From a candidate division WWE3 bacterium (GTDB taxonomy: Bacteria; Patescibacteriota; WWE3; UBA101185; UBA10185): DNA of 64,000 nt. The stretch is from NCBI GenBank assembly GCA_052035175.1, contig JBPOHV010000001.1, positions 459,338-523,337 of the forward strand, in the 5' to 3' direction. The notes under the pieces are model-generated. The model saw only the letters and a list, made by a program, of their open reading frames with translations, was not told the origin of the DNA and made no database searches. Shown in pieces: positions 349 through 56,477 of the stretch. Position numbers and translations under genes: made by a program. Each line of letters starts with the position of its first letter. The stretch's first letter is position 1.

Positions 349-2436
349 ATGGTTTTATGTCACAGATGCGGGCAACGCCCAGCACAATATCCAGTCAATC
401 AAATAATAGACGGTAAGCAAGTGTATATGGCTTTTTGTGAAGAGTGTTACAACGAATACATGCAAAAAGCTAATAATGTTTCTTCGAAAGTAGAAAAGTT
501 TGGTCGCGATCTTACAAAGCTTGCAGAAGAAGGTAAGCTCGACCCTGTAGTTGGCCGCAAAGACGAAATTCAAAGAGTAATCCACATTTTATCTAGGCGC
601 ACAAAAAATAACCCTGTTTTAATAGGAGATCCAGGTGTAGGTAAAACTGCAATTGTTGAAGGGCTTGCTCAAAAAATTATAGACGGAGCTGTTCCTGAGC
701 CTTTGCGAGGTAAAAGAGTTTTCATGTTAGATTTAGCTTCGGTTGTAGCAGGCACTCATCACAGAGGTATGTTTGAGCAAAGGCTCAAAGATATTATAGA
801 CGAAGTCATCAAATCTCAAGGACAAATTATTTTATTTATAGACGAATTGCATACAGTTGTAGGTATGGGTGGTGCAGAAGGTGCTATGGATGCAGCAAAT
901 ATTTTAAAGCCGGCATTGTCTCGTGGTCAATTGCAAATGGTAGGTGCTACAACAATAGACGAGTATCGTAGGTATGTAGAAAAAGATGCAGCTTTGGAAA
1001 GAAGATTTCAACCAATAGTTGTAGAGGAGCCTAGCTTAGAAGAAACAATCGAAATATTGAGAGGTTTGCGTGAAAGATACGAAGAATATCACCACGTAAC
1101 GATAAAAGACGAAGCTTTGATTTCTGCAGCTAAGATGAGTGATAGATATATTAGTGATAGATTTTTGCCAGACAAAGCTTTGGATATGATAGATGAAGCT
1201 TGTGCCTTGGTTAGATTATCTTTAGTTCAAGAACCAGAAAATTTAAAAGGCGTGATACAAGAATTAACAACACTCAAGTCAAAGTCCCGAGATGATTTAC
1301 CAGAAGTAGAACTTAAAAAGCTAAAAGCTCAGATAGCAGATTTAGAAAAGATAAAAAAAGAATTGGTTGAAATTTGGACAAAAACCAAATTGGAAGAAAC
1401 AGCTTATGTCACAGAACACGATGTTCTCAAAGTAATCTCTCGTGCTACAAGTATACCGCTAGAAAGACTTAGTGAAGCAGAGAAAGAAAAGCTTTTGCAT
1501 ATGGAAGATAGGTTGAAAGATCGAATAGTAGGTCAAGAAGAAGCAATTCATTTGTTGGCAGAAGCTATTCGTCGCGCGCGCTCTGGTTTGAAAGATCCAA
1601 AGAGACCTATTGGTTCTTTCTTATTCTTAGGTCCAACAGGTGTAGGTAAAACTGAACTTGCAAAGACTTTGGCTGAGGTTTTGTACGGCGATGAAGATAT
1701 GCTTGTACGCCTGGATATGAGTGAATATATGGAAAAGCATGCAGTTAGTAAAATGATAGGTGCACCACCGGGATACGTTGGTTACGATAAAGGTGGTCAG
1801 CTGACTGAAATAGTTAGAAGAAAACCGTTTTCAGTTATCCTTTTTGACGAAATAGAAAAAGCACATCCAGATACATTTAATGCACTATTGCAGATAATGG
1901 AAGATGGGCGATTAACAGATGGGCAGGGGAGAACGGTTGATTTCAAGAATACTACTTTAATCATGACTTCAAATGTAGGGTCAGAATATCTTCGTAGGTC
2001 ACAAATAGGCTTTGATGCTGAGGAAAAGACCAAAGAGCATGCCAAGCGTTCATTTGAACAAAAGATTGATGTGGCGCTTAAAGATTCGTTTAAGCCTGAA
2101 TTTTTGAATAGAATAGATGAAATAATCGTCTTTTCTTCATTGACAATAGAAGATATCGAAGAGATTTCAAAGAGAATTGTAAATAAGACTATAAAACTGT
2201 TGTCAGAAAAGGGTATTCAGTTGGAAGTAGATCATAAAGTAATAAAGCATTTAGCCCAGGTCGGTTATAGCGATGAATACGGTGCCAGACCGCTCAGAAG
2301 GCTTATACAGCGCGAACTAGATAATGTTATATCTACTATGATCATCTCAGAAGAAGTTAAAGACGGAGCTCAAATAGAGGCAACTTTGTCAAAAGACGCT
2401 GTCAAACTCAAAGTAAAACAGCCCGTTAACGTATAA
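349..2436 (+). CDS. ClpC/ClpB-like two-domain AAA+ chaperone ATPase. A short N-terminal CxxC...CxxC zinc ribbon replaces the usual Clp_N repeat domain.
   Basis: D1 Walker A is [17 protein letters not shown] coiled-coil M-domain is present ([18 protein letters not shown]). D2 Walker A is [15 protein letters not shown], followed by [17 protein letters not shown] and a sensor-2 GARPLRR. The N-terminus is [11 protein letters not shown]...[10 protein letters not shown]. Confidence 0.85.
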
Positions 2437-2481
2437 CTTGTTGATATTTTAAGGTTAATTTGGTATTCTTTCTGGCAGTCT

Positions 2482-2943
2482 ATGGCCGATGAATCAGTAA
2501 AACAAGTCAATAAACAAGCTGCTGTAAAGCCAAACTTTAAGTCTGGGGATACAGTAAATGTCTACTATAAGATTATAGAAGGCGAAAAGACTAGAATACA
2601 GCCTTATCAAGGTATTGTTATTTCTAGAAAAGGCCACGATATGTCCAAAAGCTTTACAGTCAGACGCCTTGGTGCTGATGGTGTAGGCGTAGAAAGAATA
2701 TTCCAACTGCATTCTCCAAACATAGAAAAGATAGAATTAGTCAAATCTGGCCGTGTTCGTAGAGCAAAACTTTATTATTTAAGAGATAAAAAAGGAAGCG
2801 CCGCTTATAGAATCAAAGAAAGCCCATCCTCTAAAAAACAAGCTATTAAAAATAGCGATGAGATAATAGCCCCAGAACCAGAGGTTATACAAGAATCTGA
2901 GGTTTTAACTCAAACAACTGAAGAGTCTCCAATAACAGAATAA
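2482..2943 (+). CDS. rplS: 50S ribosomal protein L19 with a ~40-aa low-complexity C-terminal extension
   Basis: The L19 core is [30 protein letters not shown]...[25 protein letters not shown]. The acidic/Ser-Pro-rich tail is not part of canonical L19. Confidence 0.88.
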
Positions 2944-40526: not shown

Positions 40527-40724
40527 CTATGTTGTTCTTGGTTTAAAGTTGGTTTCAAAAAGCAATTTTAAGTAATGTTTGTCTTGTGGGATCATGTTCA
40601 AAGCATCTAAATCTTTCGCATCTACCCATAGCATGCTTTGCCCTTCATTCAAGTTTAATTTTTGATCAGGATTATATTTTGCCACCAAATAAGCTATAGA
40701 GAGACGGGTAAATAGGAGCATCAT
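40527..40724 (-). pseudogene. Possible remnant of a NUDIX-like hydrolase C-terminus (gene fragment)
   Basis: A 65-aa ORF bounded by a stop codon six codons upstream of its Met. It sits inside an unusually long 525-bp non-coding stretch. The NUDIX assignment is weak. Confidence 0.2.
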
Positions 40725-40980
40725 CTGTCCGTTGTTGTATTAAGGCTTGGTTACTTTCGTTATAAAGTACTATATTAGCTACTCTTCGAATTGATTCCAT
40801 ATTTATCTTTGGTGACCCAACTGAGATTAAACTGGAACCCCCTACTTTCATCTATTATTGATTTGGTAGGTGTGCTTAAGAGTCCAAGTCCGTCTATAAC
40901 TTTAGCTTTCAACTAAGCACTTATAGCTCATCTATTACTACCCAATATGTACTAGAAACCCTCAGTACTACTTTCAAGTC

Positions 40981-41886
40981 CTATTTCTTCTTTGACTTTC
41001 GCTCCTTTGCAATATCCTCGACAAAAAACTTGTTATACGTTTTAAAACTGCAGTTCAATATCTTGTATTGCTTAAGTCTGGTGGCAAAGTACAGATAAAA
41101 TGTAAACGCGGTAGCTAGAACTAAATCGATCCTATCAGGGTTTTTATCAAGCAATAATGACTCTTCCCCAGCGGTATCCTTTACCCAAAAATGCTGCAAA
41201 CCAGTAATGGGCAAATGGGTATATTCTGACAAATATCTATATACAAGTGTGTACATATGCTCCACACCACCGTTTTTAGTTTTCTGGCGTTTTTTTAATC
41301 TCTTGTCTACGCGTGATGCGCGATCGTATAGACTACCCCAAACCTTTCTAAACTCATCTTTGTTTTCATATGAAATATTTAGGGAGTCTTTGTACTTTTC
41401 AAGCTCTTTTAATGGGAGTTCTCTCATTTTATCCAGGATACTATCAGGAAACGTAGAAGGTCTTAGGTGGGGATATTTACTGTAGACACTTTGTAGCTCG
41501 TTCACTACGGTTACCTTATAGTAACTGCCCTCAATTACATAATGATATAGTGGATTATTGTTAGGTGACCCTAAAATGTAATGTGAGTTGATCCATGTTT
41601 CTGATATGCTCCTTAGTATTACGATGGCAGCATCCGGTCTACTCTGTTTACAAAGTTCAAATATAGCCTCTGTATAGGAGTTAATTGCGGCGAACGCCGA
41701 CAGTACATAATATTGTTTTGGCGATAGTTCGCTTTTAACAATTGTTTTTTTGACAAGTTCTTCTTTTGTGTAATTTATAAGCTCTGCTAGCGTATTTAAG
41801 ATTTTTTGATTTTCTTCACTTAATTTTGGCAACTCATTCATACAAGGATTATAGCTTTTATTACTATTGTTATATAATCGAAGCAT
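40981..41886 (-). CDS. Hypothetical protein (element cargo)
   Basis: Intact 301-aa ORF. Lys-rich C-terminus. Confidence 0.5.
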   Translation of the reverse strand: MLRLYNNSNKSYNPCMNELPKLSEENQKILNTLAELINYTKEELVKKTIVKSELSPKQYYVLSAFAAINSYTEAIFELCKQSRPDAAIVILRSISETWINSHYILGSPNNNPLYHYVIEGSYYKVTVVNELQSVYSKYPHLRPSTFPDSILDKMRELPLKELEKYKDSLNISYENKDEFRKVWGSLYDRASRVDKRLKKRQKTKNGGVEHMYTLVYRYLSEYTHLPITGLQHFWVKDTAGEESLLLDKNPDRIDLVLATAFTFYLYFATRLKQYKILNCSFKTYNKFFVEDIAKERKSKKK

Positions 41887-42889: not shown

Positions 42890-43927
42890 ATGAACATATT
42901 TTTGGCGCCTCGTTCAAACGAAACATCATATAAAAACTTTTTGAGCACTATTGAAAGTGGTGTTGACTACTCAATAATTGAACCTCATCTAGACGAACAA
43001 GGAAAACAACTATTGGCCTCCGAAGATAAAATCTTTGCATGGGGTACTAAAGACTCTAAAAAAAGTTCATGGGAGAAGCTATTACCAGGTGATGTAGTGT
43101 TATTTTACAAGGGGAGAGAAGGCGAAGAACGCGAAGGCAAGCTTGTTTATGCAGGCAGATTACTATACAAACAAAACAGTAAGGCGTTGGGCACCTCTTT
43201 ATGGCCACCTAAAACCGGAGAAGAGCCTTGGACATGTATTTTCTTTTTAAACGATCTTAAACCAGTTTATATACCAATAACCGACATAGCGGATTTTGCA
43301 GGTTACAGTAGAAATCTTATTGTTCAAGGTTTTATGCCTATTAATGAGGATGGTGTAAATGCTATTTTGGCAAAGTTTGGAGATGTTGATAAATTTATTA
43401 AACATTACTCAGCGGATGCCCCAGTAAGTGCGAACGATTTGGAAGAAGAAGAAAACCACATTAGTGCTCATTCTGAAGCACAACTTCTATTACTGAAAAT
43501 AGGTACATTACTTGGGTTTGATACTTTTTGTCCTGATAAAGGTGCGGAGGCATACGGGGAAAAGTTAATCGACTATATTTCTTTACGAGAAGTCCCTAAG
43601 AGGTTTCTTGGTGAGGATATTTTAAAACTAGTCACTCAAATAGATGTAATTTGGTTTAAAGACGAGGTTCCAGTCGCAGCATTTGAAGTAGAACACAGCA
43701 CAAAGATTTTAAGTGGCATGCAGCGGCTGTGCCAGCTTAGTCCACTATCGACTAGGCTATACATAGTAGCCTCGACTAAGGATTATCATTTGTACGAAAA
43801 ATTTATTAATACAGACCCATATTATAAAAATAAAGGCTCTTTTAGATTTAGAAGCTACAAACAACTAGAAAGCTATTTTAAGTCAGTATCTGAGTTCACG
43901 GCCATACGTGACGTATTTATGGAGTAA
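42890..43927 (+). CDS. PUA/EVE-like domain fused to a PD-(D/E)xK-like nuclease domain; a candidate modification-dependent (Type IV-like) restriction endonuclease
   Basis: The N-terminal KIFAWGTKDSKKSSWEKLLPGDVVLFYKG...KLVYAGRLLYK fits the PUA-like EVE pattern (W...GD.v.FY). The C-terminal HSEAQLLLLKIG...IDVIWFKDEVPVAAFEVEHSTKI has E, then D, then the E.E..K spacing of restriction-endonuclease-fold proteins. Confidence 0.45.
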   Translation: MNIFLAPRSNETSYKNFLSTIESGVDYSIIEPHLDEQGKQLLASEDKIFAWGTKDSKKSSWEKLLPGDVVLFYKGREGEEREGKLVYAGRLLYKQNSKALGTSLWPPKTGEEPWTCIFFLNDLKPVYIPITDIADFAGYSRNLIVQGFMPINEDGVNAILAKFGDVDKFIKHYSADAPVSANDLEEEENHISAHSEAQLLLLKIGTLLGFDTFCPDKGAEAYGEKLIDYISLREVPKRFLGEDILKLVTQIDVIWFKDEVPVAAFEVEHSTKILSGMQRLCQLSPLSTRLYIVASTKDYHLYEKFINTDPYYKNKGSFRFRSYKQLESYFKSVSEFTAIRDVFME

Positions 43928-43947: not shown

Positions 43948-45408
43948 ATGTCTAAAGTAGGTAGAAATGACAAATGTCGATGTGGTTCTGGGAAGAAATA
44001 TAAATACTGTTGCGGCATTGATGGTGCACCAAAACTCCCAACAAATGTTAATAGACCCATAAGAGATAGAAATTTGATGATGATGCATGCAGTTGATGAT
44101 ATTTTCAAGTTTGATAAAAAAACTACATGGGATGATTTTCGAAAAAATATCAATGATGAACAAGTAAGAGAGTTTTATAGTTTTATGGATTGGCTGTGGC
44201 CGCTTGAAACTAATGTGGAAGCACTCTTACCTAAACCGTCAGATAAGCTTCGCGGCTTATACATTGGTGATATTAAGCCAGACAAAATTAGTACAAATAT
44301 ACTGCGCTACAGTTTATACACTGATGAAATTGTTGTTGTTAATCCATTTCCACATCCAAGAGCAATGTCCCCAGATTACAATCCGATTTTAAACCCCGGT
44401 CAATATAAACAAGATACATTGCAGATGATTTTTTTTGTAATGTCCTTATACAATTGGGTAGGTAAAGGTATTGTTCATTTAGTCCCTAACCCTATGGATT
44501 TCAATTATAAATTGCGTGATTCGTTCTTTTCTTCTGCTGAAGCACGGTGGAAAGATATCACTCCCGAAGATATGGAAAGCATATTAAGTGAAGAGGAAAA
44601 AAAGGAACTTGAAGAAGAAGGTAAGGATATGATTTTGAACACAATATCTCGTATGCCAGTAGATGCCCAAAAGGAGTTTATAAAACGACATCTACCTTCG
44701 ATTTCAGATACTGAAATGAACGCTCAAATCGACTTTATAAAGAGACAACGTAAAGCTAATGTATTATGGTTAGATCAAGATATGCCGGCAAACACGCCAG
44801 AACTTAAGGCTATGAGGTTAGGTGGCAATTTAGAACTAGGTTTGTATCTTAGTCAGTTAACAGGGTCCTATATGTATACAAATCGTAAATCCCAATGGAA
44901 CGAAATCTTATCGGTGCAGGTCAATAGCAATGATGAACAAGATATTTGGTCACCACTTACCAATGCGTTTCAATCGCTAGATTTCCAGTTTTTAGACAAT
45001 GTAAATTATGCTTTTATAGATAGATTGCAGGAAGAACAACGGCTTGAAAGTTTTAGAAACTACTTGCGTCGTGTGTGGGAAAGCATTAATAGTCCCACTC
45101 AAGCGTCAGAGGGTACTGTGCGCGAGTTTAAGGATGAACTTAAAGAGCAATACGCTATTGCAAAAGAGGATTGGAAGAAAATAGACATTACATTGAGAGA
45201 TTGGTTACTGAAAAAAAGCATACTCAACTCTGGCGCTGTTGCAGGAGCAAGTCAAATTCTTACAGGAAACATTAATTTGATAGCTCCAATGCTTGGGTTC
45301 TGCCTAGATGGTGTTAACCAGCTGCTTCAAGCAAATGATAAAAGAAAAGAGTTTAAGACAAAAGTACCCTTATCTGTATTTATTGATTTGGAAAATCATA
45401 GGCCATAA
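43948..45408 (+). CDS. SEC-C-motif (CxCGSGKKYKxCC zinc-binding) protein; the ~450-aa remainder has unknown function
   Basis: N-terminal KCRCGSGKKYKYCCG. It starts 20 nt after the nuclease-like gene. Confidence 0.5.
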   Translation: MSKVGRNDKCRCGSGKKYKYCCGIDGAPKLPTNVNRPIRDRNLMMMHAVDDIFKFDKKTTWDDFRKNINDEQVREFYSFMDWLWPLETNVEALLPKPSDKLRGLYIGDIKPDKISTNILRYSLYTDEIVVVNPFPHPRAMSPDYNPILNPGQYKQDTLQMIFFVMSLYNWVGKGIVHLVPNPMDFNYKLRDSFFSSAEARWKDITPEDMESILSEEEKKELEEEGKDMILNTISRMPVDAQKEFIKRHLPSISDTEMNAQIDFIKRQRKANVLWLDQDMPANTPELKAMRLGGNLELGLYLSQLTGSYMYTNRKSQWNEILSVQVNSNDEQDIWSPLTNAFQSLDFQFLDNVNYAFIDRLQEEQRLESFRNYLRRVWESINSPTQASEGTVREFKDELKEQYAIAKEDWKKIDITLRDWLLKKSILNSGAVAGASQILTGNINLIAPMLGFCLDGVNQLLQANDKRKEFKTKVPLSVFIDLENHRP

Positions 45409-45903: not shown

Positions 45904-47616
45904 ATGAAAAACACACTTGAAGGTAAAAACGCAGTAATAATAGCTAGAGCATCAACCACAAAACAATTTGATGCTGGAGATACTCTGGATCACCAAATAA
46001 ATCAATGTGAAATATATATTAAGAAAATGGGTATGCACCTAATTAAAGCGTTTACGTTAGTTGAGTCAGGTAGAAATGAGGAAAGGGAGTTTTTCACGGG
46101 TATATTAAACTACTGTTTAAATCCTAAAAACAGGGTTCAAGCAGTTGTTTTTAAAGACATATCCAGATTTACCAGGCAAGGAAGCAATACCTATACAAAT
46201 CTGAAGCAACAGTTATCTCGTGCCAATATACGGTTAGTAGATACTATGGGGATAATACAAGAAGAAGAAAACATTCTCGCTCACTTAAATGTTGTTTTTG
46301 ATTGGAGTCTTCGTTCACCGTCCGAAAGAACGGAGATAATGGAAGCTGAGGAAGCTCGTAATGAAGTAAAAAATATATTAAGCAGGACTATTGGCGCGGA
46401 AATCCAATATGTACAAGATCCCGCTAGCTACTCTGTTCGTCAACCTGAGTTTGGCTATAAGAACATTAAAACAGACGTTGATGGGAAAAAACGAACTATT
46501 AGAGCACCTGATGAAGCAGAAGCTCATTGGGTAAGGGAAATGTTTAGATTACGAGCAGAAGGTATATTAAGTGATGAAGAAATTGCACAAGACCTAAATA
46601 ATAGGGGTTTTGTTACGAGGACATTTAATAGAAGGGATAAGGAAACTAAAAAGATTGTAGGTAAGTCCGGTGGCAAGAAGTTAACTGCGAAAACCTTGAA
46701 AAAGTACATTCACAAAACAGTTTATGCCGGAGTTGTACAGGAAACTTGGGGAGGAACAACACTTTTAACTGTAAAATCAAATTTGTGGGAGGGACTAGTT
46801 ACAATCGAGACATTTAATAAAGCTAACAAAGGAAAGGTTTACATTGAAGTTCGGGATGATAGAACAGCGCATATCATGTACAACGTTAAAGATAAAAGGC
46901 GCACTCGTAGTAAAAATAACGCTTTGTTTCCATATAAAAACTATGTTTTATGTCCTATATGTAAGCGCACTCTCATGGGTAGTGCTTCTACGGGGAAGCT
47001 AGGTGGGAAGTATCCCTACTATCATTGTGAACGCAACCACAAAAGATTTAGTGTTAAAACAAGCGATATGGACAAAACAATTGAAAACTTTGTCGCTAGC
47101 CTAAAGTTTAAGGAAAGCTTTGCCAACGATTTTAGACTTGTGGTCAGGGATTTGTATCAACAGGAAAAGAAAAGGCTTCTAGAAAACACCGTAGAGGCAT
47201 CAAACCTTTTAGTTGAGCTAAAATCGCAGCAGGATCTTCTAATGGATAACCTTGTCGTGACCAAGTCCGCTTTAGTACGAGCTGAGTTGGAGAAGAAGTA
47301 CGAAGAGCTTGAACTAGATATTGCGCTAGCCATAGATTCCAGAAATAAATCTGAAGCAAAAGAGCTAGATCTTTACTATTTCGAAAATCAACTTATAAAG
47401 CTAATGGAAAACCCGAGGAAATTGTTGTCACAAGGCGCTGAAACAGTTGGTATAGGTAATATGTTTAGTAGGTTCTTTAGTGAGCCTCCCACATACGAAG
47501 ATTTAGTTAAGGGAACCCCAAAATTAACGCCTATTTTCGAGTTATCTAGAAATCAAGAAGTATCAAAGGATTTAATGGTGACCCTACGGGGAATCGAACC
47601 CCGGTTATCAGGATGA
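45904..47616 (+). CDS. Large serine recombinase (resolvase/invertase-type catalytic domain, recombinase domain, zinc ribbon, coiled coil)
   Basis: The catalytic N-terminus AVIIARASTTKQ is the Y.RVST..Q family signature. The zinc ribbon is CPICKRT...YYHCERNH, followed by a long helical C-terminus. The final 13 codons read through the tRNA-Glu T-arm and acceptor-stem sequence, giving GIEPRLSG. Confidence 0.85.
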   Translation: MKNTLEGKNAVIIARASTTKQFDAGDTLDHQINQCEIYIKKMGMHLIKAFTLVESGRNEEREFFTGILNYCLNPKNRVQAVVFKDISRFTRQGSNTYTNLKQQLSRANIRLVDTMGIIQEEENILAHLNVVFDWSLRSPSERTEIMEAEEARNEVKNILSRTIGAEIQYVQDPASYSVRQPEFGYKNIKTDVDGKKRTIRAPDEAEAHWVREMFRLRAEGILSDEEIAQDLNNRGFVTRTFNRRDKETKKIVGKSGGKKLTAKTLKKYIHKTVYAGVVQETWGGTTLLTVKSNLWEGLVTIETFNKANKGKVYIEVRDDRTAHIMYNVKDKRRTRSKNNALFPYKNYVLCPICKRTLMGSASTGKLGGKYPYYHCERNHKRFSVKTSDMDKTIENFVASLKFKESFANDFRLVVRDLYQQEKKRLLENTVEASNLLVELKSQQDLLMDNLVVTKSALVRAELEKKYEELELDIALAIDSRNKSEAKELDLYYFENQLIKLMENPRKLLSQGAETVGIGNMFSRFFSEPPTYEDLVKGTPKLTPIFELSRNQEVSKDLMVTLRGIEPRLSG

Positions 47617-47650
47617 AAACCTGATGTCCTGACCATTAGACGATAGGGCC
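47576..47650 (-). tRNA. tRNA-Glu (anticodon UUC) with encoded CCA
   Basis: The minus strand reads GGCCCTA TC GTCT AATGGTCA GGAC A TCAGG TTTTCAT CCTGA TAAC CGGGG TTCGATT CCCCG TAGGGTC A CCA. The cloverleaf folds cleanly. Confidence 0.85.
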
Positions 47651-49844: not shown

Positions 49845-50631
49845 TTATATCTACCCCGCGTTTTAATTTGACGCCTTTTTGAATTTCTTCTTTCTCTTTA
49901 CCTCTTGTTATGTCCAAAACTTTTCCGTCTTGTATTCTGACTGCTGATTTTCCATATCTAAGATATTCTAGGTCGTGCGTAACCATTAATATTGTACGTC
50001 CTGTATTATTTAAATCTACTAGTATTTGTAATAAGTTTTGACCAGACTCGTAATCAAGGTTTCCTGTAGGTTCATCGGCGATAATTAATTCTGGGTCGGT
50101 AACCAAAGCTCGTGCGAGTGCAACCTTTTGCTGTTGACCTCCGGATAGCTCTGTAGGACGGTAGCTCGCCCAGTTTTGCATACCCATACTTTCTAGGGAT
50201 TTCCAAGCTTTTTGCAAAGCAGTTACGCGGTCTACTCCTAATAAAGATAAAGGAAATGCAATATTCTCAATTACTGAAAGCGATTTGACCCAGTTGGCTT
50301 GTTGATAAACCATACCTATATGTTTTTTTCTAAATCCAGATCTATCATCGTCAGTTGCTAATGCGTACAAATCTGTATCCAAACAAAAAACCTTCCCAGA
50401 TGTTGGTATTTCCAAACCTAGTAAGACGTGTAATAAAGTTGATTTACCAGATCCAGATGGACCAAGAATAATTGCAAAATCACCGCGAGGCACTTCAAAC
50501 GAAATGCCTTTTAGTACTTCGATAGTTTGTGTACCTACGATAAAAGACTTGGTTATCTCTGTTGCTTTTAAAACAATTGCGGGTGCCGCTGGTGCTGCTG
50601 CCTCAGCAGTTTGTGCTGGAATATCACTCAT
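49837..50631 (-). CDS. ABC transporter ATP-binding protein (MacB/LolD/FtsE-like)
   Basis: Walker A GPSGSGKST, signature LSGGQQQKVALARAL, Walker B IIADEPTGNLD, H-loop VTHD. Confidence 0.9.
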   Translation of the reverse strand: MSDIPAQTAEAAAPAAPAIVLKATEITKSFIVGTQTIEVLKGISFEVPRGDFAIILGPSGSGKSTLLHVLLGLEIPTSGKVFCLDTDLYALATDDDRSGFRKKHIGMVYQQANWVKSLSVIENIAFPLSLLGVDRVTALQKAWKSLESMGMQNWASYRPTELSGGQQQKVALARALVTDPELIIADEPTGNLDYESGQNLLQILVDLNNTGRTILMVTHDLEYLRYGKSAVRIQDGKVLDITRGKEKEEIQKGVKLKRGVDING

Positions 50632-53600
50632 TTTTTAAGACCTCCCAAGAATCCAAACACTTCACCCAAATTTGTAATTACCAAGTTCAATGCGCTGTCA
50701 GAAGATTTTGGCGTAATGCTTACAGTGTCTATAGATTTTGCTTCATTGGTTGCTTTGTCTTTAGAAAGAGCTCGTAAATGATAAACTTTTGAAGTATTTA
50801 AACCTGAAATTACCACGACGTGGTTGTAAGTTAGGTTTGAGTCTTCTTGCGTCTTTTGAGAATAGGTTGTTCCTGTACCTTCGCCAAATTCCACTTGAGA
50901 TGTTCCGGGTTCGTCTGTATCCCAACTTACTACCAATTGCGCTGTAGCTACTTGTTCACTTGTATTAACGATATTTCCTTCGACTCGTAAGTTTGAAATC
51001 AAAGGAGGTCTCGTATCTGTTGCAGTTGTTAATTGTTGTGGATCGCTCGAGGCCTGATTCCCTGCTTTGTCTATACCTTTTACTACCATTGTATAAGGTG
51101 TTTCTGGGAATAATCCTTTTATTAATAACCTATGTACACCTTTAACGAGCTTAACATTAACTTCGTCTCTTGCTTGTGATGCATCGCTGCTTGGGTAATA
51201 CGTAATTATTGATGAAACTTCTGTATTAGTTGACCATGATACTAAAACTGCTGGTTGTGCACTACCTTTGACTTGTTGGATTTTGACATTATCTATTTTT
51301 GGTCGTGGTAAAGTTTCAAACGACAAAATACTTCCTTCATACTCTTCGCCTTCTGTATCAAAAGTGTTTATTTTATAATAGTATTTTGTACCATCTTCCA
51401 AGCTATCTATTGTTGTATTATAAGTTGTTTCGCTTGTAGAAGTTGAAAGTTCAACAGAACCTCCAAATGCAGAAGTTTTGCCATAATAAATTTTAACTTT
51501 TGAAGAACTATTTACGGTATATTGCAGAATTACACTGTTAATGCCAACTGTTTTGGCTGTTGGATCAGTTACAGTCGGCGCTGGTGCAGTCTCAAAAGTA
51601 AATTCATCTGTTAGTCCAGTATTTCCATCTTCATCAGTCCACTTTGCTACTGCATAATAATTTGTTCCTGGTGAAAGATTTGTAAGCGTTATTTCGTGTG
51701 CAGTTACTTGAGTTGAGTTTGAAGGCTCTTCGTCAAAATAATCACCCTCACTCGTACCAAATTGTATTTTTGAATCGCTGGCTCGATCTGTGGACCATGT
51801 TATTGTAGCTTGCTTTGTTGTTATGCCAGTTACTTCTGGTTCACTTTCTAGCGCTGCAGCTTCTGTAAATTTACCTGTAGGCAATAAGGAAACAGCTGCA
51901 GTAGATGCGCCGCAGTTGCTTACGCTATCGCAAGCTTTCACTTTATAATAGTATGTTTCTTGTTCTAGTGATGTATCGATATACGCTGATCCTGTTGTAG
52001 ATGCTAATAATGTATATGTACTATCGTCAGAAGATCTATATATTTCATATTCTTCTACGCCAGAACCTACATCAGTAGGAGCTGTCCATGATAATGCCAA
52101 CCTCCATGCTGATGTACTTTTGATAGAAACGTCTGAAATTTCTAGATTTAACGGAATGCCTGGTGCAGATGTATTGGCTGTGAAACTTACACTAGTGTAA
52201 GATCCATAATTTATAGTTCCTCCTACATCATCTCCGTTTTTTGCAACTAAATAAAAAGTATTCAAACCTACTTGTGTAGCAAATGAGCTCGCCGAAACAG
52301 ATGTAGCTCCAGCGCTTGTATAAGTACATGTATCTACAGAAGGTAGTGTATTTACTGTATAACAATATGTCAGGTCAGATGAGTCACCGCTATACGTTGC
52401 AGGAATTTGCCAAGAAAACGCAAAAGAGTTAGTTGTATTTGTGCTAGGTGTAGCAGTCAAAAATTGTGGTGCCGATGGTCCATCTCCTCCATAATAGTAT
52501 GTAGCTTGTAATGGTGTTGCCGATACATTACCCGCTGTATCAATTACTCTTAAATAAAATGTATTTGCGCCTGTTTGATATGCAGCAGAAGGGATATCAA
52601 TACTAGTAGAAGCAGTAGTCGACGACCAATCGCTTAGATCTCCACTTGGTGCACCAGTTTTATATTGATATCCTGCTAAACCTGATCCGGTATCTGATGC
52701 AATTCCATCCCCAGACGAGGGCCATGAAAATGTAAACGAATTTGTAGATGCATAACCAGAAGGTGTAACAGTAACTGTACTTGGGTTGCTTGGATTTGTA
52801 TTATCAAACTTATATATAAAAGGTGCGTACACTGTGCTTAAGTTTTGTGCATTATCTTTGGCTTGAATTCGCAAATAATACGTCGATCCGCTCGACAACC
52901 CTGAAGCTGAGTATGATGTACCCACTTGAAATACTCCTGCTGTAGATGGTGTTGCAGTATTATCTGTTCCAAAATAAACATAATAACCAGCAACTCCAGC
53001 TTCTGTGTCTGATGCGCCGCTCCAAGAGAAATACGGTGTTGTATACGTATACCAAGTGTTTGTTGTCAAAGATGTTCCTCCGCCAGAAACATTTAGAGCT
53101 GTCAAACTACTTGGTGGGTTAGGATTTGTTGTATCTGCTTCAGCTTCAACTGTTATAGAATTTAGTGTTACAGCTTGTGTACCATCTCCATCCAAGATAG
53201 CTTGCCATTTAATACCGCTAGAGCTTATAGAAAAAGTGTCTATATTGGTATCAATCGTTGAACTAGCGTTGGCTTGTGCGGTAGACGCAGATGTAGCCCA
53301 AGCTCCGCCATCCCAATATTTCCAAGTAGTGCCGCCATCGTTAGACAACCGATAAGTTATTGCTCCGCCATTTGCAGTTTCTGAAACTACAAATCCGGTA
53401 TATGTATATATATCTTCAGTAAACACGGCTGTCGCATTTTGTATAGTTTGTGCCGATGTAGAATAAGCTGTTGTATTAAATGATGGTAGTGCAGTATTGC
53501 TTATTCTCACTTCGTCTATATTGCCATTAAAAAATCCTTGAGGACTACCCTGACTAGTGCTTCCATAAGTTGTTCCTAGTAAAACTGCTTTTGCGGTATT

Positions 53601-56477
53601 TGGTATTGATAACGAGGCACTTCCAGAGTTATCCAAAGTTCCGTCAATATAAATTTTCATAGTAGAACCATCGTATGTAGCAGCTATATGATGCCAGCTA
53701 GTATTTTGTGACGTAGTTGCCGATTGCAAATACCCATTGTTTCCATAAGACCAAATAGCAGCATCTACATTTGCACTTTCACCTAATCCAGCATAAAGTT
53801 TGCCTTTGTAAACACTTAAAGAGTGTACGCTTTCAGATGCATTAATATCCCAGCTAGAATTTAAGGCATCGCCTCCGACTTGTGCCCATGTTGAACCATC
53901 GTATTTCCATACTTCTGATTCTCCTGCTGTAGTACCAAGGCCAGCATAAATGTCCCCATTATAAGAAGCTAGTGCTCTGAGTCTTTCATAAGTTCCTGCT
54001 GTCCAACTTCCTCCAATATCGTCGCCACCTATTTGTGTCCAAGCAGCGCCATCCCATTTCCATAAATCAGCATCACCTGCTGTTGTACCTAATCCTGCAT
54101 ATATTTCACTGTTATGTACAATCAGTGTTTCTACTATTTCATGTAAAGATGCCCATCCAGAATTTGTGCTGTCGCCTCCTATTTTAGTCCATGCAGTGCC
54201 ATTAAAACTCCAAACCTCAGCATCCCCAGCAGTGTTACCAATGCCTGCGTAAACAACCCCATTATAAGAGGTCATACTATACACAGCTTCAAAATTTGTT
54301 GTCCAACCAGAGTTAAGACTGTCTCCTCCAACTTTTTCCCACACTGTCCCATTCCATCGCCACACTTCTGCATCATTTGCAGACAACCCCAAACCTGCGT
54401 ATAAATATCCTCCTGAAACTGTCATGCTTTGCACTGTTTCAAAACCGGTATTCCAACCCGAGTTTAAATTGTCACCTCCAACTTGTGTCCAAGTTGTACC
54501 GTTGTAGCTCCAAACTTCCGCGTCGTTGGCGGTTGATCCAATACCCACATATAAATCTCCATTATAGCTTCGCATAGAGAATACGCCTTCATATGTAGCA
54601 GCTGACCAGCTACTATTTACTCCTTGCCCACCAACAATTGCCCAAGAACTACCGTCGTATTCCCATACTAATGCATTGCCTGCAACGGTATACCCGGTAC
54701 CAGCATACAGTTTACCGTTGTGAGTTTTCATAACTTCTACACTTTGCAAATTATAAAAGCCCCAACTTTTGTTAATATAATTTCCGCCTATTCTGGTCCA
54801 AGCAGATCCATTCCAAGTCCAGAATTCTCCTGAAGCTGATGCTGCTGTAGTTCCTGTATATAAAGTCCCGCCAGTATAAAGAAGCGTATTTATTATTGTA
54901 TGTGTATTTGTAAATCCAGAATTTATAGCATCTCCACCAATTTTGGTCCAAGCAGAACCATTCCAACGCCATACTTCATTGTCACCTGCTGTTGTACCAA
55001 GCCCTGCGTAAATATTAGTACCATCACTCTCTAATGCGTAAACACCTTCATAATTTGTAGTCCACCCAGAATTTGTGCTGTCGCCTCCTATTTTGGTCCA
55101 GCTGCCACCTGTATACTGCCAAACTTCTGCATCATTTGCCGAATTTCCTAGGCCTGCATACAAACTAGTACCAGCATATTCCATTGTAAGGACTTGTTCA
55201 TAATCAGTATTCCAGCTAGAGTTTGTCCCATCTCCGCCAATTTTGGTCCAAGCAGATCCATTCCAGCTCCAAATCTCTGCGTCTGTCGTACTGCTTCCTA
55301 AGGCTGCATATACTGTAGATCCGTCATTAACCAGTTTCATTACTGTCTCAAAATTTGTAGTCCATCCTGAGTTTATACTATCTCCACCTATTTTGGTCCA
55401 AGCAGATCCATTCCAGCTCCAAACCTCCGCATCATTAGCACTACTACCAGTACCAGCGTACAAAGTTGAACCCATATATGTAAGAGTAGCAATATATTCA
55501 TAAGTTCCTACTGCCCAGCTTGAATTGATGGCATCGCCACCAATTTTAGTCCAACTGTTACAACCAGTACTTGTATTGCAATACCAAACTTCAGCATCTC
55601 CTGCGGTTATACCAATACCTATATATAAGTTTGTACCATCTGTTGCCATAGCAGAAACAGTCTCAAACGTTTGAGCTGCCCAGCTTGAATTAATGGCATC
55701 GCCACCCACTTGTTCCCAAATAGTCCCATCCCATTTCCAGACTTCTGCATCACCTGCAGCATTTCCTAAGCCAACATAAATGTTGCTCCCAACAACAATA
55801 GATGAATTTACATCCAGTTTTCCGTTTAAATCCCAACTTTCGTTTATATCAAGGCCAGCTCTTTGAGTCCAATCTGTTTCTGTGGTATTAACTAACTCAT
55901 ACGTCACTTTACCTGTTTCATTGTCGTAATAAAGTTTGTAATCACCTTTATCGATAATACCTTGTTCATATTCGGTACTTCCTGCAGAAAATGCTGTTCC
56001 AAACTTTGTCCAAGCTTCCAAAGTATTTGATTGGCTAAGTGATAAAGATGAGCTATCTGGTATAGATATTTTTTTTGTAAGTCCATCCAATGAAAATGCG
56101 TTGTTTAGATTACCTGTAGTCCAAGAAGCAATTGATGCAGTACCGTCGTTATTATTTGCAGATGCATCGTCTACAGTTGTTCCGCTAGACTCATCTAAGT
56201 GCCACAGACCCATTGTATTAGCGTCAGTTGTATAATTTTGTACTTTAAGTCTCGCAGTATTGCTACTTACTTCTATTGCTGCAGAGTCAGATAATGTGTA
56301 ATCACCAGAGCTAGCAAATGTCCAAGCTTGGCTTACATATCCAGCAGCTAATGCTTTTAAATAGGTTTGAGTTAATACAACAGTAAAACATATTAAAACC
56401 AAAGATATTACAACGTAAGTAATTTTTTTCTTTGTATTGAAAAACTTATAAAAGATTAATGGCAGCTTTTGTATCAT
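50628..56477 (-). CDS. Giant (1949-aa) cell-surface protein: N-terminal anchor, LamG/ConA-like domain, ~13 Kelch-like beta-propeller repeats, a second LamG-like domain, multiple FN3-like domains
   Basis: N-terminal TM. Repeats have the form DAEVW.WNGSAWTKIGGD..NSGW...YE.V.....G..LYAG.G. FN3-like segments include YYLRIQAKDNAQN. Its stop overlaps the ABC ATPase start by 4 nt. Confidence 0.7.
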   Translation of the reverse strand: MIQKLPLIFYKFFNTKKKITYVVISLVLICFTVVLTQTYLKALAAGYVSQAWTFASSGDYTLSDSAAIEVSSNTARLKVQNYTTDANTMGLWHLDESSGTTVDDASANNNDGTASIASWTTGNLNNAFSLDGLTKKISIPDSSSLSLSQSNTLEAWTKFGTAFSAGSTEYEQGIIDKGDYKLYYDNETGKVTYELVNTTETDWTQRAGLDINESWDLNGKLDVNSSIVVGSNIYVGLGNAAGDAEVWKWDGTIWEQVGGDAINSSWAAQTFETVSAMATDGTNLYIGIGITAGDAEVWYCNTSTGCNSWTKIGGDAINSSWAVGTYEYIATLTYMGSTLYAGTGSSANDAEVWSWNGSAWTKIGGDSINSGWTTNFETVMKLVNDGSTVYAALGSSTTDAEIWSWNGSAWTKIGGDGTNSSWNTDYEQVLTMEYAGTSLYAGLGNSANDAEVWQYTGGSWTKIGGDSTNSGWTTNYEGVYALESDGTNIYAGLGTTAGDNEVWRWNGSAWTKIGGDAINSGFTNTHTIINTLLYTGGTLYTGTTAASASGEFWTWNGSAWTRIGGNYINKSWGFYNLQSVEVMKTHNGKLYAGTGYTVAGNALVWEYDGSSWAIVGGQGVNSSWSAATYEGVFSMRSYNGDLYVGIGSTANDAEVWSYNGTTWTQVGGDNLNSGWNTGFETVQSMTVSGGYLYAGLGLSANDAEVWRWNGTVWEKVGGDSLNSGWTTNFEAVYSMTSYNGVVYAGIGNTAGDAEVWSFNGTAWTKIGGDSTNSGWASLHEIVETLIVHNSEIYAGLGTTAGDADLWKWDGAAWTQIGGDDIGGSWTAGTYERLRALASYNGDIYAGLGTTAGESEVWKYDGSTWAQVGGDALNSSWDINASESVHSLSVYKGKLYAGLGESANVDAAIWSYGNNGYLQSATTSQNTSWHHIAATYDGSTMKIYIDGTLDNSGSASLSIPNTAKAVLLGTTYGSTSQGSPQGFFNGNIDEVRISNTALPSFNTTAYSTSAQTIQNATAVFTEDIYTYTGFVVSETANGGAITYRLSNDGGTTWKYWDGGAWATSASTAQANASSTIDTNIDTFSISSSGIKWQAILDGDGTQAVTLNSITVEAEADTTNPNPPSSLTALNVSGGGTSLTTNTWYTYTTPYFSWSGASDTEAGVAGYYVYFGTDNTATPSTAGVFQVGTSYSASGLSSGSTYYLRIQAKDNAQNLSTVYAPFIYKFDNTNPSNPSTVTVTPSGYASTNSFTFSWPSSGDGIASDTGSGLAGYQYKTGAPSGDLSDWSSTTASTSIDIPSAAYQTGANTFYLRVIDTAGNVSATPLQATYYYGGDGPSAPQFLTATPSTNTTNSFAFSWQIPATYSGDSSDLTYCYTVNTLPSVDTCTYTSAGATSVSASSFATQVGLNTFYLVAKNGDDVGGTINYGSYTSVSFTANTSAPGIPLNLEISDVSIKSTSAWRLALSWTAPTDVGSGVEEYEIYRSSDDSTYTLLASTTGSAYIDTSLEQETYYYKVKACDSVSNCGASTAAVSLLPTGKFTEAAALESEPEVTGITTKQATITWSTDRASDSKIQFGTSEGDYFDEEPSNSTQVTAHEITLTNLSPGTNYYAVAKWTDEDGNTGLTDEFTFETAPAPTVTDPTAKTVGINSVILQYTVNSSSKVKIYYGKTSAFGGSVELSTSTSETTYNTTIDSLEDGTKYYYKINTFDTEGEEYEGSILSFETLPRPKIDNVKIQQVKGSAQPAVLVSWSTNTEVSSIITYYPSSDASQARDEVNVKLVKGVHRLLIKGLFPETPYTMVVKGIDKAGNQASSDPQQLTTATDTRPPLISNLRVEGNIVNTSEQVATAQLVVSWDTDEPGTSQVEFGEGTGTTYSQKTQEDSNLTYNHVVVISGLNTSKVYHLRALSKDKATNEAKSIDTVSITPKSSDSALNLVITNLGEVFGFLGGLKK
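53700..55800 (-). repeat. Tandem ~141-150-bp nucleotide repeats inside the giant gene; some copies are near-identical
   Basis: For example 55231-55277 versus 55381-55427 (tctcc.cc.attttggtccaagcagatccattccagctccaaa.ctc), with similar units near 54781, 54931 and 55078. Confidence 0.6.

Follow-up and report, generated by a model that had tools for sequence, protein, structure and literature searches.

A predicted single-chain, modification-dependent restriction endonuclease on a small integrative island of a candidate division WWE3 bacterium

We analysed a stretch of 64,000 nucleotides (nt) from a candidate division WWE3 bacterium (GenBank assembly GCA_052035175.1, contig JBPOHV010000001.1, positions 459,338 to 523,337 of the forward strand; hereafter the window), in which one gene joins a predicted modified-base reader domain to a predicted nuclease domain (Table 1). 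An earlier note on this DNA had proposed that the gene encodes a modification-dependent restriction enzyme carried as mobile cargo. The gene order at the locus is a DUF5677 gene, two small open reading frames (ORFs), the fusion gene, a gene for a SEC-C protein, a small ORF, a serine recombinase gene and a tRNA-Glu gene. The fusion gene is a real gene and not a chance ORF, because it has 140 database homologues at an expect value (E) of at most 1e-3, most of them full-length and 53-84% identical to it, because its divergence from its paralogue P0002 on the contig (84% amino acid (aa) and 74% nt identity) combines saturated synonymous change (pS 0.88) with a nonsynonymous change (pN) of 0.10, and because AlphaFold2 models two confident domains. 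By part, pN was 0.115 in the N-domain, 0.069 in the C-domain and highest, at 0.23, in the linker between them; purifying selection on the gene is strong and constrains both domains. The AlphaFold2 model, based on a 51-sequence alignment, had a mean predicted local distance difference test score (pLDDT) of 86.6 and placed the modification-sensor and nuclease domains, approximately residues 1-176 and 190-345, in a single polypeptide with a disordered linker. No second copy was found within the window, the paralogue lying elsewhere on the contig, and a promoter and terminator scan gave nothing exceeding shuffled expectation.

The W…GDxVxFY pattern from which the earlier note had deduced a PUA-like reader of modified bases is present in the translation as W51-G52 ... 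P66-G67-D68-V69-V70-L71-F72-Y73. In HMMER alignments, W51 pairs with the Trp of 'FWG' and GDxVLFY with GDMVLFY of TgMcrB-N, the N-terminal YTH-like domain of the McrBC Type IV protein TgMcrB from Thermococcus gammatolerans. A profile made from a 16-sequence N-domain alignment and run against PDB sequences matched TgMcrB-N (6p0f, E 3.1e-5 over residues 13-162; 6ut5, E 3.6e-4) and the EVE protein PH1033 (1wmm, E 0.029). When the whole AlphaFold2 model was compared with the PDB by Foldseek, 6p0f was again the best match (E 7.4e-7, template modelling score (TM) 0.68); EVE proteins PH1033 and MJECL36 (1wmm, E 2.6e-5; 2p5d, 4.5e-5; 2hd9, 5.1e-5) and YTH domains (5zuu, E 8.6e-3; 5h8a) were also matched. 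The only match to the protein in NCBIfam was a faint one to PRK00809 (E 0.027). Because the profile and Foldseek comparisons favoured TgMcrB-N and the comparison with a true EVE sequence was not significant, the N-domain is assigned, on sequence profiles and a structural model, to the PUA-like EVE/YTH clade and to its TgMcrB YTH-like branch, not to Pfam EVE proper. The PUA-like assignment of the earlier note is thus borne out, and its 'EVE/PUA-like' label holds at the level of the EVE/YTH clade, with the domain nearer to the YTH-like domain of TgMcrB than to Pfam EVE. In the 16-sequence alignment, W51, W61, D68, Y73, W105, W114 and F119 were invariant in every fusion context, and W51, W61, Y73, W105 and W114 are candidate base-pocket residues. 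TgMcrB-N binds double- and single-stranded DNA containing N6-methyladenine (N6mA) and has little affinity for RNA, and the three-residue aromatic cage of YTH domains is retained in TgMcrB-N and in MJECL36 (PMC7544203, PMC8868631).

The C-terminal domain belongs to the Pfam family NmeDI_C, precomputed as PF27126 for this protein and for nearly all full-length homologues. The PADLOC model REase_II PDLC03534, which has 351 positions, matched residues 193-320 (E 2.3e-7) and scored higher on other family branches, and plasmid-encoded homologues of the C-domain found by tblastn carry the PGAP name 'type II restriction endonuclease'. These assignments agree with the nuclease that the earlier note had proposed for the C-terminus. 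Modelled alone by AlphaFold2, the C-domain reached a pLDDT of 89.8 and a predicted TM score of 0.86. The order of elements in the model, with a helix at 190-207, strands at 211-213, 253-257 and 260-267, a helix at 273-281 and a strand at 289-294, is predicted to match the alpha-beta-beta-beta-alpha-beta core of restriction-endonuclease-like nucleases. For the restriction-endonuclease fold proposed in the earlier note, Foldseek returned two restriction enzymes, BsaWI (E 0.038, probability 0.90, TM 0.50) and EcoT38I (E 5e-3 with the full model and 0.48 with the isolated C-domain), and the similarity is weak. With the isolated C-domain, nothing in the PDB matched below E 1e-3, and beyond BsaWI and EcoT38I there was Rossmann-like noise (FeoB, Ras, integrin I-domains); likewise, a C-domain profile run against PDB sequences returned spurious matches only (polyketide synthases, FeoB). 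In BFVD, the matches were individually weak and were mostly PD-(D/E)XK nucleases, including ERCC4, MmcB-like, T7 endonuclease I-like and Mrr proteins and entries named 'restriction endonuclease'.

Conservation was counted in 148 NmeDI_C representatives with at most 50% mutual identity. The family signature is H194...D252-x13-E266-x-E268...R/K279, with the counts for each residue given in Table 1, and T271 is Thr in 134 of the 148. In the AlphaFold2 model, D252 heads the second strand, and E266 and E268 end the third, which is adjacent to it. The arrangement described in the earlier note, a helix with Glu, a strand with Asp and E.E..K, is found in part: E196 in the helix, D252 (in 'IDVIW') and E266/E268 are present, and the spacing is E.E...K (E266-V-E268-H-S-T-K272). 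As to conservation, D252, E266 and E268 are near-invariant, whereas E196 (commonly Y or D elsewhere in the family) and K272 (commonly D or N) are conserved among close relatives only. Because a glutamate, E268, occupies the position of the lysine in the canonical (D/E)xK motif and E196 is not conserved in the family, the active site is read from the alignment as a variant of (P)D...(D/E)xK. R279 is a candidate for the role of the absent motif lysine, and R/K279 together with H194 may compensate for its loss. The missing lysine and the weak fold matches to active restriction enzymes would also fit a catalytically inactive DNA-binding protein with a degenerate nuclease fold, such as a regulator or a modified-DNA-binding factor. 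We regard such a protein as highly improbable, given that D252, E266 and E268 are essentially invariant in the 148 representatives and that the C-domain is the more constrained half of the protein by pN. Active sites of the D...ExE type also function in some restriction enzymes, for example BamHI with D94, E111 and E113.

The reader domain of the fusion protein was found on several other partners. With up to 66% identity, it heads GTPases with AAA5 and McrB-lid domains, and a McrC gene lies directly downstream of one such reader-bearing McrB homologue (P0094, locus L007). With 36-48% identity, it heads HNH nucleases (P0108) that match the PADLOC models named 'Type IV methyl-directed restriction enzyme'. 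It also occurs on other nuclease-like C-termini (P0097, P0098, P0104 and P0106) with faint Mrr/Hjc-like or AbiU-like signals. A tblastn search of annotated plasmids and phages located the N-domain in genes named 'HNH endonuclease', and the phage records gave one match, in a provirus AAA ATPase. Judged by these homologies, the reader domain is a mobile module of restriction systems. We also considered an RNA-directed effector, whose reader would recognise a modified base in tRNA, rRNA or phage RNA and whose C-domain would be an RNase or an abortive-infection toxin. Modified RNA is a ligand of eukaryotic YTH domains and of many EVE domains, the YTH-like domains of the CoCoNuT relatives of McrBC are predicted to target RNA (PMC11090510), and EVE domains occur in toxin-antitoxin contexts (PMC7641849). 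On the other hand, TgMcrB-N, the closest characterised homologue, is a DNA binder with little RNA affinity, the partner domain has a Type II enzyme that cuts double-stranded DNA among its relatives, and the reader is also carried by classical McrB/McrC pairs. In the contexts examined, no conserved HEPN, cold-shock or other RNA-linked domain and no antitoxin-like partner adjoined the gene. We therefore judge an RNA-directed role to be unlikely.

Some reader-HNH fusions have a gene for a MazG-like nucleotide pyrophosphohydrolase directly upstream (L008/L009, 5628-7002; L013, 3630-4978). This arrangement was seen in a Magasanikbacteria metagenome-assembled genome (MAG) and on a Bacillus mycoides plasmid, and the two genes may represent a conserved module. 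At L008, the locus adjoins an OLD-like ATPase/TOPRIM gene and a serine recombinase gene. Two odd fusions were also seen. P0112 combines part of the reader domain with the C-terminal domain of RNA polymerase alpha and with sigma-70 region 4, and among the NmeDI_C proteins one (P0328) has the nuclease domain after sigma-70 regions 2 and 4. Both may have arisen through errors of assembly or gene calling, or they may be genuine variants linked to transcription.

The nuclease domain is likewise found with different partners. An exhaustive HMMER search identified 1,784 representative clusters with NmeDI_C, C-terminal in all of them, and a word-indexed search counted more than 7,000 proteins with the domain. 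In the largest branch, the N-terminal partner is a domain of about 90 aa annotated in UniRef as a HARE-type helix-turn-helix (HTH) (59 of the 150 top representatives), and HARE-HTH has been proposed to be a reader of DNA modification (PMC11037411). Further partners are an approximately 240-aa class with OGG-like similarity and a sigma-70-type HTH. In P0229, the domain ahead of NmeDI_C is a genuine Pfam EVE (33 bits, cut-off 23), and other modules of PUA-like appearance precede it in P0116/P0230 and in P0267 and relatives. By these architectures, the NmeDI_C nuclease is a mobile module behind swappable DNA-reading domains.

Methyltransferases were searched for at two levels. Among called genes, there was none in five homologue contexts (around P0002, P0021, P0044 and P0063). 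A motif scan, which used motif IV [DNS]PP[YFWH] and, for C5 enzymes, PCQ and ENV, found none up to 6 kb from ten additional full-length homologues, nor in any of the window's frames of 150 aa or more. As for McrBC features, the fusion protein has no AAA domain and no McrC-like neighbour. The neighbourhoods of the homologues vary, and no neighbour is conserved. These results bear on the possibility that the protein is a conventional, sequence-specific Type II-like enzyme, as NmeDI is, with cleavage blocked by methylation and a cognate methyltransferase elsewhere in the genome. In its favour, NmeDI, the Type II enzyme that gave the C-domain family its name, is similar in length (351 aa), and relatives carry 'type II' labels from PADLOC and PGAP. 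However, no methyltransferase was adjacent in about 15 contexts. A Type II enzyme without protection would be lethal, and the genes of such pairs usually lie close together, like those of NmeDI. The N-domain has a modified-base reader as its homologue and is swapped among McrB and HNH partners of Type IV, and plasmid genes with the 'type II' label similarly have no adjacent methyltransferase in their listed annotation. A Type II-like enzyme is thus quite improbable in our judgement.

The plasmid genes in question are NmeDI_C genes at L011 (3122-4498, 458 aa) and L012 (3353-4615, 420 aa), both labelled 'type II restriction endonuclease', and the listed annotation shows no DNA methyltransferase beside either. 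Many of the 'type II' labels in the NmeDI_C family may be names carried over by similarity to NmeDI.

Taken together, we consider it likely that the product of the gene is a single-chain Type IV, that is, modification-dependent, restriction endonuclease and that a small integrative island carries the gene. The Type IV-like reading of the earlier note is strengthened by the presence of the same reader on McrB/McrC pairs and HNH nucleases and by the lack of an adjacent methyltransferase in the contexts examined. In the proposed mechanism, the YTH/EVE-like domain would scan DNA, rather than RNA, and flip a modified base into the conserved aromatic pocket. The flexible acidic linker would tether the reader to the NmeDI_C nuclease, which is predicted to bind Mg2+ via D252, E266 and E268 with the assistance of H194 and R279. 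Double-stranded DNA would then be cut near the modified site, probably by a dimer that needs two engaged readers. Only incoming phage or other foreign DNA bearing the modification would be cut; because the host would be without the target modification, no protective methyltransferase would be needed. N6mA is favoured as the target base because TgMcrB-N, the nearest characterised homologue, prefers N6mA DNA. By this analogy, it is our best guess, held with a little less than even confidence, and modified cytosines are equally compatible with an EVE-like pocket. The narrower proposal of a sequence-context-independent, N6mA-dependent, single-chain restriction enzyme is more tentative still.

Several results weigh against a modification-dependent restriction endonuclease on an integrative island. 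Pfam-A gave no match on the whole protein at E of at most 1, Pfam EVE (PF01878) included, in a version searched without the PF27126 model, and an hhalign comparison of the N-domain profile with the bona fide EVE sequence P0229 returned a probability of 0.6%. On the nuclease side, the lysine of the canonical motif is replaced by E268, the helix residue E196 is not conserved in the family, and the structural match to BsaWI is weak. The RNA targeting predicted for CoCoNuT YTH-like domains is a further point. The methyltransferase scan was crude and covered the loci and the window, so that a methyltransferase elsewhere in the 925-kb genome is possible. Finally, a search for attachment (att)-like direct repeats and for a duplicated tRNA-Glu 3' end found only chance-level matches of 9-13 nt.

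Among characterised proteins, TgMcrB is the closest to the reader half of the fusion. Its YTH-like domain (PDB 6P0F, 6P0G and 6UT5) is homologous to the N-domain and is the best structural match, with an identity of about 21%; N6mA specificity is that of TgMcrB-N and would extend to the present family only by analogy. In contrast to TgMcrB, the fusion protein has neither the AAA+ GTPase motor nor a McrC partner, and its reader is fused straight to the nuclease. Because there is no GTPase motor and the fusion is direct, no translocation driven by nucleoside triphosphates is expected. Modification-dependent fusions of the PUA superfamily have been described previously, including EVE-HNH (VcaM4I and TspA15I), SRA-HNH (TagI), SRA-PD-(D/E)XK (MspJI) and EVE-DUF3427-PD-(D/E)XK (YenY4I) (PMC6765204, PMC7897488). 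The fusion protein resembles these enzymes in having an N-terminal PUA-like sensor of the base-flipping kind, a linker and a C-terminal nuclease, with a methyltransferase rarely nearby (PMC6765204, PMC7897488). It differs from them in that its sensor is TgMcrB/YTH-like and not Pfam EVE or SRA and in that its nuclease is NmeDI_C with D...ExE.

R.NmeDI of Neisseria meningitidis is an experimentally characterised Type II enzyme; its gene and that of its cognate C5 methyltransferase overlap. R.NmeDI recognises unmodified RCCGGY and cuts on both sides of the site, excising a fragment (PMC2095814). The C-domain of the fusion protein is in the family named after that of NmeDI, membership being assigned through family models. 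Unlike R.NmeDI, the fusion protein has a modified-base reader in place of the N-terminal part, and its gene has no adjacent methyltransferase. In our search of the literature on the restriction enzyme NmeDI, only the 2007 description was found (PMC2095814). The proteins of HARE-HTH type with NmeDI_C (about 247 aa; Flavobacterium nackdongense WP_133275264) have the same nuclease with the same invariant H, D, ExE and T, at a C-domain identity of about 31-42%, whereas their N-terminal module is unrelated, small and not a PUA-like barrel. YTH-like/PD-(D/E)XK fusions were noted bioinformatically by Bell, Wolf and Koonin in 2020, and the portion of that article available to us does not describe the present family, the NmeDI_C nuclease, the catalytic signature or the island context (PMC7641849). 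In a 2024 paper on winged-helix domains, the characterisation of YTH fusions was still future work (PMC11037411). The fusion protein is thus a member of an uncharacterised family inside a known kind, whose design principle and architecture class are already in the literature.

If confirmed, this would bring into the modification-dependent enzymes an uncharacterised family that combines a TgMcrB-type YTH-like reader with an NmeDI-type nuclease and has no motor. Enzymes that cut at N6-methyladenine outside a fixed sequence are scarce, and a candidate of 345 aa could serve to map modified bases once its specificity is known. The shuffling runs in two directions, with one reader on McrB, HNH and NmeDI_C partners and one nuclease behind HARE-HTH, EVE and OGG-like readers. 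The locus would also be an example of defence cargo in an apparently small genome, in which two diverged copies lie on tRNA-linked serine-recombinase islands of a 925-kb contig.

Table 1 Coordinates of the fusion gene, its predicted domains and residues, and the neighbouring island features (positions in the window)
Feature	Position	Strand	Evidence
Reader-nuclease fusion gene, complete	42890..43927	+	ATG-to-stop ORF, 345 aa plus stop
Predicted N-terminal reader domain, residues 1-176, PUA-superfamily, YTH/EVE-like, TgMcrB-NTD type	42890..43417	+	AlphaFold2 pLDDT mostly > 85, Foldseek, profile
Motif segment W51-G52 ... G67-D68-V69-V70-L71-F72-Y73	43040..43108	+	HMMER alignments
Acidic disordered inter-domain linker, residues 177-189, APVSANDLEEEEN	43418..43456	+	pLDDT < 50 for residues 177-189
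Predicted C-terminal nuclease domain, residues 190-345, Pfam NmeDI_C	43457..43924	+	PF27126, PADLOC, AlphaFold2, Foldseek, BFVD
H194 codon, helix alpha-1	43469..43471	+	H in 137/138 aligned
D252 codon, predicted catalytic Asp, start of strand beta-2	43643..43645	+	D in 147/148
E266-V267-E268 codons, predicted catalytic ExE, strand beta-3	43685..43693	+	E266: E 145/148, D 3/148; E268: E 144/148
R279 codon, basic, helix after beta-3	43724..43726	+	R or K in 147/148
DUF5677 gene, divergently upstream of the fusion gene	40981..41886	-	Pfam
486-aa protein, N-terminal SEC-C zinc motif	43948..45408	+	Pfam E 5.7e-6; starts 20 nt past the stop of the fusion gene
Large serine recombinase (Resolvase + Recombinase + zinc ribbon)	45904..47616	+	Pfam, NCBIfam
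tRNA-Glu(TTC)	47576..47650	-	ARAGORN; 3' half overlaps last 41 nt of recombinase ORF

Full-length relatives were present in about 10 of 185,579 GTDB species representatives (one genome per species), with 56-72% identity across unrelated phyla. Their hosts were Gottesmanbacteria, Peribacteria, Paceibacterota, TM6 and Dehalococcoidales, together with MAGs labelled Clostridiales, Actinomycetota and Gammaproteobacteria. Such a patchy, cross-phylum spread with high identity is typical of horizontally moving defence genes. In viral contigs, there were five distant relatives of the C-domain only and no full-length relative. Directly after one homologue (P0021) come SIR2_2 and DUF87 (HerA-like) genes (L002/L003, 8001-11987), a known defence pair that gives this family member a defence-island-like setting.

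The overlap between the serine recombinase ORF and tRNA-Glu is the probable right-hand edge of the island. With no att repeats to fix it, the left border can be placed only to the interval between 40456 and 40980. A second island elsewhere in the genome (L001) carries a DUF5677 gene (1942-2811, minus strand), the paralogue of the fusion gene, a YaaC-family gene, a small ORF, a serine recombinase gene and tRNA-Lys(CTT). The two DUF5677 proteins share 54% aa identity, and the small ORFs are related. The YaaC gene, on the opposite strand, replaces the SEC-C gene, and the serine recombinase, which ends 38 nt before tRNA-Lys (L001, 6054-7573, for this stretch), is 22% identical to that of the first island. 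These comparisons suggest that this apparently small genome has two serine-recombinase islands targeted to tRNA genes; by sequence the islands are related but mosaic and not the product of a recent duplication. The mobile-cargo claim of the earlier note is thus supported by the recombinase abutting tRNA-Glu, by the second island at tRNA-Lys and by the patchy distribution across phyla.

The presence of the gene in both recombinase islands of this genome, and the OGG-like (DNA-glycosylase-like) N-terminal module of another NmeDI_C branch, raise the alternative of a housekeeping or island-maintenance nuclease that repairs damaged or non-canonical bases, or acts in island integration or retention, with no role in defence. 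A distribution as rare and patchy as that described above is unlike a repair function, however; in other genomes the gene is unlinked to recombinases or island genes, and one homologue neighbourhood holds the known defence pair. We consider this alternative very improbable and retain a modification-dependent restriction endonuclease as the preferred reading. Patescibacteria are regarded as organisms that attach to other microbes and salvage nucleotides from them. There is a very slim chance that the enzyme serves for more than antiviral defence, distinguishing the methylated DNA of a partner or host from the bacterium's own unmethylated DNA and degrading acquired host DNA for salvage; the two paralogues might then cover two different modifications.

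Neither DUF5677 nor the SEC-C protein could be retained as an obligate partner: both are absent near ten other full-length homologues and from the P0021, P0044 and P0063 contexts, and the SEC-C protein is variable island cargo. The DUF5677 gene had no PADLOC match. The SEC-C protein had no recognisable domain beyond its zinc motif, and may be further defence cargo. To the left of the DUF5677 gene, near the expected left border of the island, a pair of short ORFs that overlap each other (65 and 59 aa; window 40527-40851, minus strand) had no match in Pfam and may be remnants of a disrupted gene. Further to the right, a 1,949-aa ORF (window 50628-56477, minus strand) contains fibronectin-III, laminin-G and Ig-like domains and differs from the rest of the window in its GC content (0.42 versus about 0.35) and its GC skew (-0.30); it probably encodes a giant surface protein.

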